Shown here: positions 2,546-55,311 of the stretch, one piece after another | How positions within the stretch are numbered: position 1 is the stretch's first letter | Layout: each line of letters opens with the position of its first letter | NCBI GenBank assembly: GCA_963807605.1 | Contig: CAWECG010000003.1 | Coordinates: 608,001 to 672,000, forward strand | Direction of reading: 5' to 3' | Origin: Candidatus Bathyarchaeota archaeon | Lineage (GTDB): Archaea > Thermoproteota > Bathyarchaeia > 40CM-2-53-6 > RBG-13-38-9 | DNA: 64,000 nt | Notes under the pieces: model-generated | The model's input: the letters and a program-made list of their open reading frames with translations, nothing else | Database searches by the model: none | Told to the model about the DNA's origin: nothing | Program-made: the position numbers and the translations under genes

Positions 2546-2579
2546 AAGTTCATGTAGGTACCCATGGGATGGCGGGCTT

Positions 2580-2697
2580 GGGCCCGTAAACCAAGATGTA
2601 GGTTGGTCGGGACGCTCAGTCAGGTAGAGCGGTGGTCCAGACTTGGCCGAAGCTCTTAACCCAAAGGTCGCGGGTTCAAATCCCGTCGGGCCCGCCA
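2580..2697 (+). tRNA. tRNA-Lys(CTT) with two non-canonical introns (9/10: 2589-2613; 30/31: 2636-2651), CCA encoded
   Basis: Removing both introns gives GGGCCCG-TA-GCTC-AGTCAGGTA-GAGC-G-GTGGG-CTCTTAA-CCCAA-AGGTC-GCGGG-TTCAAAT-CCCGT-CGGGCCC-GCCA; both junctions fold into bulge-helix-bulge motifs. Confidence 0.9.
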
Positions 2698-36049: not shown

Positions 36050-36176
36050 GGGGTTGGCAGCGGTCCAGGGTTCGCGTAGGCTCTCGCACAACACTACAGC
36101 CTGGTTCGCCTGGAAGATTCACTTCCGTGATCGGAACGGGTACGGGTCCTAGCTTCCAGCTATGGCCGCCAACCCC
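36050..36176 (-). rRNA. rrf: 5S rRNA, unlinked
   Basis: GGGGTTGGCGGCCATAGC...ACCCGTACCCGTTCCGATCACGGAAGT...GCTGCCAACCCC; helix I and helix II (CTGGAAG/CTTCCAG) pair. Confidence 0.92.
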
Positions 36177-50648: not shown

Positions 50649-50741
50649 TGGCGGGCCCGGTGGGATTCGAACCCACGATCTCCGGCTCTCCTCCTCTCTG
50701 ACCGAAGGCCAGCATCTTAATCCTGACTAGACTACGGGCCC
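50649..50741 (-). tRNA. tRNA-Arg(TCG) with canonical 37/38 intron (50688-50701), CCA encoded
   Basis: GGGCCCGTAGTCTAG...CTGGC-CTTCGG[TCAGAGAGGAGGAG]A-GCCGG...TTCGAATCCCACCGGGCCCGCCA; CTTC/GAGG central BHB helix. Confidence 0.93.
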
Positions 50742-53460: not shown

Positions 53461-53988
53461 TTGATCGAGACTATCGAGGGTTACTATAGGAACGGCAAGG
53501 TCTACATTCCAGAAACCGATAGGCTCATAGAGCTTCTTGATCGAGGCTTCGGAACTCGCCGAGATAAGAGGCTTGAACTCTCACCCTACGAGACTTTCTT
53601 CCTGACTGAGAAGGGACGTATAAGAGTTATCGATAAGCATAGCGAAAGCGCAATGTCACTCCATAACCTTGTTGCCAGTTTGTCAATGGGCAAACAAGAG
53701 ATCTGGATAAGATATCTCGTCTATAGAGACCTCAGAGACAGAGGATACATCGTCCGTGAGACCAACAGAGTTGACTTTGAAATTTACGGAAAGGGATCGG
53801 AGAGGCGTCTCGTCTCCATAGTATACGAGGGCCGAGAGGCGAACCTTCAAGATCTCACCACTCTAATAAGATACGCCGCCAAGCAGAGGAAGGAGCTCAT
53901 ACTGGCTGTAATAGACAGAAGGACAGACCTAGTGTACTACTCTATTGGCGAGATAGAGTTTCAGAAGCGTCAGCAGAAACAAGAATGA
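53461..53988 (+). CDS. tRNA splicing endonuclease, structural (non-catalytic beta-type) subunit
   Basis: L.L...E..FL...G, YLVYRDLR.RGY.V, LAV.D....VYY; lacks the catalytic KY/FG Tyr loop and His. Confidence 0.78.
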   Translation: MIETIEGYYRNGKVYIPETDRLIELLDRGFGTRRDKRLELSPYETFFLTEKGRIRVIDKHSESAMSLHNLVASLSMGKQEIWIRYLVYRDLRDRGYIVRETNRVDFEIYGKGSERRLVSIVYEGREANLQDLTTLIRYAAKQRKELILAVIDRRTDLVYYSIGEIEFQKRQQKQE

Positions 53989-54003: not shown

Positions 54004-55311
54004 TTGGCTGACCAAACCGGCTTTGCACCTCCAAGAGGGATGAGAGACATTGAGTCAGGTGAAATGGTCAGGCGTCACTGGATGTATGAGAAGATCCAGC
54101 AGACGATGCTGTTGTATGGGTTCCAGATGGTAGAGCCAACGGCTATTGAGACTCTCTCCACTTTAGAGGCAAAATCAGGCCCAGATATCAAAAATGAGAT
54201 CTACTGGTTTGAGGATAAAGCTGGAAGAAAACTCGGCTTGCGGTTCGACCTTACCGTCGGAATGACTAGAATGGTGGCAAATCGCCTCGAACTCCCTGAA
54301 CCCATAAAATTCTGCGCCATTTCTGAGATGTGGAGGTATGATGAGCCACAATTTGCACGATACAGGCATTTCTCTCAATGGGACGCAGAGATCTACGGAT
54401 CCTCCGAGCAAGAGGCTGACGCCGAAGTCATCTGCCTAGGCATGGATATCCTAGATAACCTGGGACTCAAAGACTATGAAGTGCGAATAAGCAACCGAAA
54501 ACTCACTGAAGGATTCCTAAGATCCAAAGGTATAGAGTCAAGAGAGAAGATCGAAGCAACCATTCGAGTGATAGACAAAATAAGAAAACTGTCTAAAGAA
54601 CAGATCATAGAAGAGTTCAGAACTATTGAACTCGACGTAACCATTATCGAGCAGATACTCAGTTTTGCCAGCCTAAGAGGCAAACCGGACCAGATCCTCT
54701 CAGAGAGCTCTGAGCTACTTGGGAAGACGGCTGGAGAGGGTTTTGAGGAGCTTTCCAGACTCGCTGAGATCATACATGGTTTTCAGAGGATTGACCGTTG
54801 CGTCTACGACCTTAGCGTCGTTAGGGGGATAGGCTACTACGACGGAACAGTCTTTGAGGCCTACGATAGCGGTGGTGAAGATATAGGCGCAATCTTCGCG
54901 GGCGGGCGATACGATGGCCTCTGCAGAATCTATGGAAAAAGAGACATGCCAGCAACAGGTGTGGCCGGAGGAATTGAGAGGATGATGATCTCTATGGAAA
55001 GAGCAGGGGTCTTTCCCAAACTGAAAGAGGCGCCTGAAGTATTCGTTGTAGCGGTCAATGACATGGTCAGAAGAGAGTGCTGGAACATAACTCAGCAACT
55101 AAGGAGGGACGGTCTCTCCGCAGACTTTGATTTGAAGAGGCGCTCCCTCAAGAAACAGCTCGAGTACATAGACTCAACCAAGATACCCTATGCCGTAATC
55201 GTGGGACAGAGAGAGCTTGAGAAAGGCACAGTAAAGCTGAGGGACATGGTCCAACGTTCAGAAACGGAAGCAAGCCTAAACGAAGCTATTAGAGCCATAA
55301 GGAAGACATGA
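54004..55311 (+). CDS. hisS: Histidyl-tRNA synthetase
   Basis: PRGMRD, LRFDLT, WRYDEPQ..R.R.F.Q, VRG..YYDG.VFE, GGRYD.L. Confidence 0.96.
   Translation: MADQTGFAPPRGMRDIESGEMVRRHWMYEKIQQTMLLYGFQMVEPTAIETLSTLEAKSGPDIKNEIYWFEDKAGRKLGLRFDLTVGMTRMVANRLELPEPIKFCAISEMWRYDEPQFARYRHFSQWDAEIYGSSEQEADAEVICLGMDILDNLGLKDYEVRISNRKLTEGFLRSKGIESREKIEATIRVIDKIRKLSKEQIIEEFRTIELDVTIIEQILSFASLRGKPDQILSESSELLGKTAGEGFEELSRLAEIIHGFQRIDRCVYDLSVVRGIGYYDGTVFEAYDSGGEDIGAIFAGGRYDGLCRIYGKRDMPATGVAGGIERMMISMERAGVFPKLKEAPEVFVVAVNDMVRRECWNITQQLRRDGLSADFDLKRRSLKKQLEYIDSTKIPYAVIVGQRELEKGTVKLRDMVQRSETEASLNEAIRAIRKT

Follow-up and report, generated by a model that had tools for sequence, protein, structure and literature searches.

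Predicted leader-assisted splicing of a strict BHB intron at position 9/10 of a Bathyarchaeia tRNA-Lys(CTT) gene

A 118-nt tRNA-Lys(CTT) gene with an encoded CCA and two introns was located on the forward strand at positions 2580-2697 of the window, which is the whole 64,000-nt stretch of DNA analyzed here. Its sequence, read together with those of its relatives, points to an account to which we assign a rough probability of 0.7: the gene carries two bulge-helix-bulge (BHB) introns, splicing of intron 1 is assisted by a strand in the 5′ leader, and the locus is the only tRNA-Lys(CUU) gene of the genome. Taken separately, the presence of a real, spliced 9/10 intron in tRNA-Lys(CTT) is considered very probable, and assistance of 9/10 splicing by the leader is considered probable.

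Organization of the tRNA-Lys(CTT) gene

The exons and introns were assigned as follows (window coordinates).

2580-2588, + strand: exon 1, tRNA nt 1-9, GGGCCCGTA; it contributes nt 1-3 to BHB helix h, nt 4-7 to central helix H, and nt 8-9 as bases one and two of bulge 1.
2589-2613, + strand: intron 1, 25 nt, position 9/10; bulge base A at 2589, inner helix 2590-2594/2603-2607, loop 2595-2602, H′ CGGG at 2608-2611, and bulge 2 bases AC at 2612-2613.
2614-2635, + strand: exon 2, tRNA nt 10-30, with the D arm, G26, and the 5′ strand of the anticodon stem; CTC at 2615-2617 pairs with G1-G3 (BHB 1), and GAG at 2627-2629 and CGGT at 2630-2633 are helices h and H of BHB 2.
2636-2651, + strand: intron 2, 16 nt, position 30/31.
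2652-2697, + strand: exon 3, tRNA nt 31-76, with anticodon CTT at 2655-2657, T arm, 3′ acceptor strand, G73, and CCA.

When both introns were removed, a canonical 77-nt tRNA-Lys(CTT) cloverleaf was obtained with ARAGORN, having a 7-bp acceptor stem, U8, A9, a 4-bp D stem, a T arm, and G73-CCA. In the preliminary description of this DNA, excision of intron 1 was held to restore U8-A9-G10 of a normal tRNA-Lys. This junction is indeed restored, but removal of intron 1 is not sufficient, and the 30/31 intron must be removed as well (ARAGORN). The structure obtained by removing intron 1 alone, a “tRNA-Val(GAC)” with a long variable arm, was rejected, as it is without U33 and leaves the Lys anticodon arm unused.

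The splice motif of intron 1

Intron 1 is flanked by a strict 3-4-3 hBHBh′ motif, in which two 3-nt bulges on opposite strands are separated by a 4-bp helix. This strict form has been described for archaeal EndA substrates (PMC6379350). Helix h (3 bp) is formed by GGG 2580-2582 and CTC 2615-2617 (nt 1-3 with nt 11-13), with G.U as the middle pair, and the central helix by CCCG 2583-2586 (nt 4-7) and CGGG 2608-2611. The bulges are TAA 2587-2589 (TA↓A, the arrow marking the cut) and ACG 2612-2614 (AC↓G). The 5-bp inner helix h′ consists of ACCAA 2590-2594 and TTGGT 2603-2607, with 2595-2602 as its loop. Cutting after the second bulge base on each strand takes out 2589-2613 and joins U8-A9 to G10, and the bases flanking the intron make the position of the cuts unambiguous. 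Every base and pairing agreed with the BHB geometry proposed earlier for position 9/10. The accompanying claim that the BHB consumes nt 1-7 also stood: the motif is built on these nucleotides, and the acceptor stem is excluded while it forms.

The cut rule was verified on two canonical 37/38 introns of the same genome, those of tRNA-Pro(TGG) and tRNA-Arg(TCG) (window 50649-50741). In each case, the last two intron bases are preceded by four that pair with nt 32-35: CTTG with CAAG, followed by AA↓C, in tRNA-Pro(TGG), and CTTC with GAGG, followed by AG↓A, in tRNA-Arg(TCG).

A strict BHB arose by chance in 159 of 200,000 shuffles of intron 1 (approximately 8 in 10,000). Minimum free energy (MFE) folding gave z-scores of −1.0, −1.9, and −1.7, which are not significant alone and provide weak support. 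The exact BHB was never the RNAfold optimum, because 3-nt bulges are penalised in folding; another inner-stem register was preferred.

Intron 2 and the fold of the precursor

The motif of intron 2 is composed of GAG/CTC and CGGT/GCCG (H′ GCCG at 2646-2649), and GG↓T and AA↓G are the bulges. Only one pair of the inner helix is left in this genome, which gives the relaxed bulge-helix-loop form. The orthologue L002 keeps a 5-bp inner helix, CCAGA/TCTGG, in the same intron; a 3-nt deletion removed the helix in the genome studied here. Relatives that are intron-less at 9/10 still carry the 30/31 intron, and 30/31 is the split point of the tRNA-Lys(CUU) genes of N. equitans and Staphylothermus (PMC4090602). 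Since the two BHB motifs between them occupy both strands of the D stem, their formation is incompatible with a cloverleaf precursor.

The spliced 30/31 junction creates the sequence UGGGCUC (nt 28-34), which can pair with GGGCCCG, the acceptor 5′ strand. The two were paired by RNAfold in spliced RNA still bearing the leader, and this pairing may be due to chance or may represent an intermediate fold.

Orthologues and distribution of 9/10 introns

The family set consisted of 15 tRNA-Lys(CTT) orthologues, namely the window's own gene and those of the 14 relatives, out of 15, in which the gene was recovered by blastn. An insert follows directly after GGGCCCGTA in all 15. The bulge patterns TA↓N and NN↓G are kept throughout (15/15), and CGGG is found in 14/15, the set not having been selected on CGGG; the L022 orthologue has one C.A mismatch in the central helix. 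The inner helices vary (ACCAA/TTGGT, ACC/GGT, ACCGG/TCGGT, CCAC/GTGG, CTAGGA/TCCTGG, and others), as does the length of the intron, from 19 to 31 nt: the interior of the intron changes and its architecture is kept. Across these 15 genomes from 8 genera, and also in one further family, exon features, promoter, and both splice motifs are conserved. Four other families of the order (f5, f6, f8, and f3; loci L012-L014, L017, L018, L020, L021, and L023) have a tRNA-Lys that reads GGGCCCGTAGCTCAG or GGGTCCGTAGCTCAG uninterrupted at 9/10 and has kept the 30/31 intron.

A pattern scan of 401 Bathyarchaeia genomes detected the 9/10 architecture in families f1, f2, f3, f10, f13, f14, f27, and f31. In total, 54 distinct 9/10 sequences were collected, from at least 8 Bathyarchaeia families and several tRNAs. 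The position had been taken for a rare one, which has to be given up: 9/10 is common in the class Bathyarchaeia. Only sequences with at least 3 of the 4 central-helix pairs were kept in the set of 54, and the occurrence of CGGG in 51/54 is partly a result of this selection. Positions 1-5 of the inner helix are paired in 54/54, 50/54, 44/54, 45/53, and 48/51 sequences, respectively, by A-T, G-C, C-G, and T-A pairs. As a control, the partner was shifted by one base, and the first three inner pairs were then retained in 19/54, 34/54, and 12/54. Compensatory changes in the inner helix (ACCAA/TTGGT), which the preliminary description had proposed to look for in orthologues, were found both in the family set and in the 54 class sequences.

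In family f2, the largest of the order (L071-L092), tRNA-Lys(CTT) has three introns, at 9/10, at 30/31, and after the variable region, and its leader contains (T/C)GGCGGGT. The 9/10 architecture additionally occurs there in a tRNA with a CAT anticodon. The first inner-helix bases of f2 (ACC...GGT) resemble those of the genome studied here, which hints at a shared origin. Introns of the same design are located at position 8/9 in tRNA-Thr(CGT) and tRNA-Asn(GTT) of this genome.

Promoter-like element and leader strand

Two elements were recognized upstream of the tRNA.

2533-2546, + strand: promoter-like (TATA-like) element AAAAGATTATTAGA, nearly invariant and at the same distance in L001-L011 and L015.
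2570-2579, + strand: 5′ leader “decoy” TGGCGGGCTT, complementary to the tRNA 3′ end GGGCCCGCCA (2688-2697).

From the end of the AAAAGATTATTAGA box to tRNA base 1 there are 33 nt. Based on the usual archaeal TATA-to-start spacing, we infer that the transcript starts approximately 13 nt upstream of the tRNA and thus includes the leader strand. A palindrome, (T)ACCCATGG, is situated between the TATA-like box and the decoy (window 2560-2568); it is conserved in the closest relatives only (L002-L005) and may be part of the initiation region.

The strands TGGCGGGCTT and GGGCCCGCCA can form 10 contiguous pairs, or 11 if G1 pairs with C66. The core of the decoy, GGCGGG(C) or GGTGGGC, was found 2-8 nt upstream of the tRNA in 15/15 intron-bearing orthologues of the family. 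It is missing from the intron-less orthologues, even from L023, in which the promoter is at an equal distance. Among the 28 tRNAs of the studied genome that have an intact T arm, 10 contiguous pairs between leader and 3′ end occur only in Lys-CTT and Asn-GTT, the others having at most 6. A hairpin of the leader with G3-G7 (CGGGC/GCCCG) is possible only through the palindromic GGGCCC and was disfavoured. Pairing with the 3′ end is favoured over it because TGG, which matches CCA, is conserved, and because of the Thr and Asn cases described below.

Within tRNA-Lys, the combination of intron and leader pairing may go back to one or two evolutionary events. As the tRNA-Lys kin are not independent, independent support comes from other tRNAs. 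In tRNA-Thr(CGT), whose gene has an 8/9 intron, the tRNA's own GCCCCGG strand is repeated exactly upstream. The tRNA-Asn(GTT) gene (G000:C4:65450-65595, − strand) is interrupted by several introns, of which one lies at 8/9 (GCCGCCG T T↓T ... GGCG AT↓A GCTC), and its acceptor strand recurs upstream as GGTGCCGCCG, 10 nt ahead of base 1. For six intron-less tRNAs that share the acceptor strand GGGCCCG, from four relatives, the leader scores were 4-5, and tRNAs with a 9/10 intron mostly scored 7-11. The exceptions among the 9/10-intron genes were L120, which is without a decoy, and L127, whose decoy has one mismatch. The decoy also tracks the discriminator and the trailing bases: G73-CCA is accompanied by TGGC, A73 by T, and GCTA by TAGC. 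In the 9/10-intron tRNA L126 (G167:C1:56146-56490), GCTA instead of GCCA follows the gene, and the leader reads TAGCGGGTCC. As this leader matches GCTA, it has changed in step with the bases after the discriminator.

Folding energies with and without the leader

Energies were calculated with ViennaRNA at 37 °C for a 14-nt leader.

Precursor without leader: acceptor fold, −47.1 kcal/mol; BHB fold, −40.9 kcal/mol.
Precursor with the 14-nt leader: acceptor fold, −50.7 kcal/mol; leader helix plus BHB, −53.1 to −55.1 kcal/mol.

Addition of the leader moves the equilibrium towards the BHB fold and away from the acceptor stem by approximately 9 kcal/mol (in silico). In the MFE fold, the acceptor stem gave way to the native leader in 13/14 orthologues, and the central helix forms in 8 of those. 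The shuffled-leader control was only partly clean, as composition-matched G-rich shuffles sometimes freed the central helix too. After splicing, the leader helix still beats the cloverleaf by approximately 10 kcal/mol (−44.7 vs −35.0, nearest-neighbour), which counts against the model proposed below. On how the 3′ end is then released for RNase P we can only speculate: RNase P might first cut inside the pseudo-acceptor helix, or tertiary contacts or modifications might be involved.

Splicing and processing enzymes

Two genes of the EndA family were identified in the genome, encoding proteins of 188 and 175 aa.

G000:C4:303386-303622: catalytic EndA subunit, 188 aa; PF01974, 93 bits; best solved matches 2cv8, 3p1z_B, and 2zyz_B.
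Window 53461-53988, + strand: divergent EndA subunit, 175 aa; 55 bits; weak solved matches, including 2zyz_A.

The 188-aa protein gave a gap-free alignment with the EndA catalytic subunits of S. tokodaii, A. pernix, and P. aerophilum. Its GPGIDHAPF aligns with GPGIEHAPY, and the catalytic His, the residue mutated in 3ajv, is present. Its segment GKPVGIPKPKPDQ aligned, likewise gap-free, to the loop region of S. tokodaii EndA; the Crenarchaea-specific EndA loop has been defined (PMC2724299). In the 175-aa protein, no His was seen by eye where GPGIDHAPF of its 188-aa paralogue aligns, and this protein is probably the structural (beta-like) partner of the 188-aa subunit. The genome is accordingly predicted to encode a two-subunit Crenarchaea-type (alpha-beta)2 EndA. 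Enzymes of this type cut relaxed motifs at non-canonical sites (PMC3239211, PMC6379350). RtcB (574.9 bits) and RNase P RNA are present as well. The gene of the 175-aa protein is directly upstream of a histidyl-tRNA synthetase gene (54004-55311). All of the closest matches to the HisRS gene come from Bathyarchaeia or Bathyarchaeota MAGs, which places this uncultured archaeon in Bathyarchaeia.

Proposed maturation pathway and alternative explanations

In the proposed pathway, the transcript would begin with the decoy TGGCGGGCTT, and the decoy would take the 3′ acceptor strand, G73, and CCA, so that the 4-bp central helix would not lose out to the 7-bp G-C acceptor stem. The real 5′ strand would build BHB 1 with intron 1 and C11-C13, and BHB 2 would form on the other strand of the D stem. 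The two-subunit EndA would cut both motifs, the 9-nt exon 1 staying tethered through the leader helix, after which RtcB would join the exons, the tRNA would refold, and RNase P would trim the leader. In this sequence of events, splicing of intron 1 would precede 5′ maturation. Cleavage, the order of the steps, and the later displacement of the leader are what we infer from the elements described above.

We rate the chances as slightly better than even that archaeal BHB introns at positions 8/9 to 10/11 are generally licensed by a decoy acceptor strand in the 5′ leader, which would force a non-cloverleaf fold, tether exon 1, and place splicing before RNase P. If so, introns would colonise acceptor-proximal positions only where such a leader co-evolves. 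The decoy leader would be a simple RNA device that substitutes for the 5′ strand, and it would fix the order of tRNA maturation. The gene is an example of how a protein-spliced intron can be accommodated at a site whose splice signal has to borrow the acceptor stem, a region usually thought to be nearly closed to introns.

The decoy could be dispensable for cleavage if the BHB forms during transcription, before the 3′ strand exists. Of the alternatives considered, the one built on this point survives best, and is still judged unlikely. According to it, intron 1 is spliced by EndA from a BHB that folds co-transcriptionally, and the leader is not needed for the motif, serving for tethering, CCA protection, or RNase P timing. 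The 5′ strand, the intron, and C11-C13 are in fact transcribed approximately 70 nt before the 3′ strand. Tethering would explain why the leader accompanies 8/9 and 9/10 introns alike, and the persistence of the leader helix as the most stable fold after splicing suits a role beyond motif formation. The energy difference speaks for the proposed pathway instead, as the leader changes the winning fold at equilibrium. The tether and competitor roles are, moreover, not exclusive, and the present data do not separate the two.

It is far less probable that the insert is removed otherwise, either through a relaxed motif in a cloverleaf-like fold or by cuts shifted 1-2 bases, so that the junction is not A9-G10. 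Such a reading could draw on the cleavage of relaxed motifs by the Crenarchaea-type EndA (PMC3239211, PMC6379350) and on the other inner-stem register in the RNAfold optimum. A cloverleaf fold, however, leaves the insert a mere hairpin, with no 4-bp helix between the sites. Nor would it account for CGGG, the complement of C4-G7, which is kept in 14/15 of the unselected family orthologues (and in 51/54 of the set filtered on a minimum of 3 of 4 pairs). No junction other than A9↓G10 gives back U8, A9, and the D stem with G10-C25, and its position is unambiguous from the flanking bases.

Lysine codons were counted crudely in the long open frames of the window, giving 392 AAG vs 261 AAA. A tRNA with U34 is often able to read G-ending codons, and a tRNA-Lys(TTT) gene is present at G000:C3:421410-421529. 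That the locus is a decaying pseudogene with insertions, AAG being read by this tRNA-Lys(UUU), is scarcely credible. Standard finders do not accept the gene, but its exons, promoter, and both motifs have been maintained, with compensatory changes, in 15 genomes from 8 genera plus a second family. Within the window, AAG is also the Lys codon used more often, and no second Lys-CTT gene was seen in the 94%-complete genome.

Detection by gene finders and other RNA genes

Nothing was reported at 2580-2697 by ARAGORN with default settings or by Rfam at the gathering threshold. The Rfam tRNA model scored 26.5 bits against a cut-off of 29, and its alignment started at window position 2605, inside intron 1. 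With introns allowed, ARAGORN gave the right ends and the CTT anticodon, but with one false 41-nt intron. The expectation that tRNA finders miss or mis-truncate the gene was therefore borne out. Standard finders overlook or misdraw Lys-CUU and several further Bathyarchaeia tRNAs, and tRNA complements, completeness estimates, and codon-reading inferences are consequently biased for this abundant sediment and soil lineage.

The “tRNA-Glu(ttc)” called by default ARAGORN at window 50649-50741 (− strand) was rejected as a miscall. When its 14-nt 37/38 intron TCAGAGAGGAGGAG, which lies in a proper BHB, was removed, a clean 79-nt tRNA-Arg(TCG) was obtained. One further RNA gene was annotated.

36052-36173, − strand: 5S rRNA gene (Rfam, 80 bits).

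Comparison with known systems

Non-canonical BHB introns are known from TACK archaea, and intron 1 is one of this kind. Those of Thermoproteales and other TACK archaea (Marck and Grosjean 2003; Sugahara 2008; reviewed in PMC4090602, PMC6379350) are likewise short, protein-spliced introns with two 3-nt bulges around a 4-bp helix. Several introns may be found per gene, including 3/4 introns in the acceptor stem, a two-subunit EndA of broad specificity is present, and 30/31 is among the positions listed. The positions given in reviews are 3/4, 20/21, 22/23, 25/26, 29/30, 30/31, 45/46, 53/54, 56/57, 59/60 “etc.”, along with the D-arm and the acceptor stem in general (PMC4090602, PMC6379350, PMC12397907). 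Position 9/10 is unnamed in these three reviews, which were the sources compared. Intron 1 differs from the TACK introns as reviewed in its site, 9/10, and in a motif made from the acceptor 5′ strand and one strand of the D stem, which excludes the cloverleaf. It also differs from them, as described, in the conserved leader strand that pairs with the 3′ end.

The D-arm introns of Asgard tRNAs (bioRxiv 10.64898/2026.10.13.758758; PMC11291895) are similarly short, located near the 5′ part of the tRNA, and overlooked by tRNAscan-SE. The study of these introns concerns another phylum, files acceptor-stem and junction positions under “other”, and leaves leaders unmentioned.

A literature search returned no description of a leader strand standing in for an acceptor strand. 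The nearest idea to the decoy leader is the leader and trailer helices of split tRNAs. In the split tRNA genes of Nanoarchaeum equitans, Caldivirga, and Staphylothermus (PMC4090602, PMC3218864), extra strands that are not part of the mature tRNA likewise pair with each other, joining the pieces and presenting a BHB to EndA. Unlike in split tRNAs, a single transcript is involved here, and the helper is a 5′ leader acting on the transcript's own 3′ end, not the trailer of another transcript.
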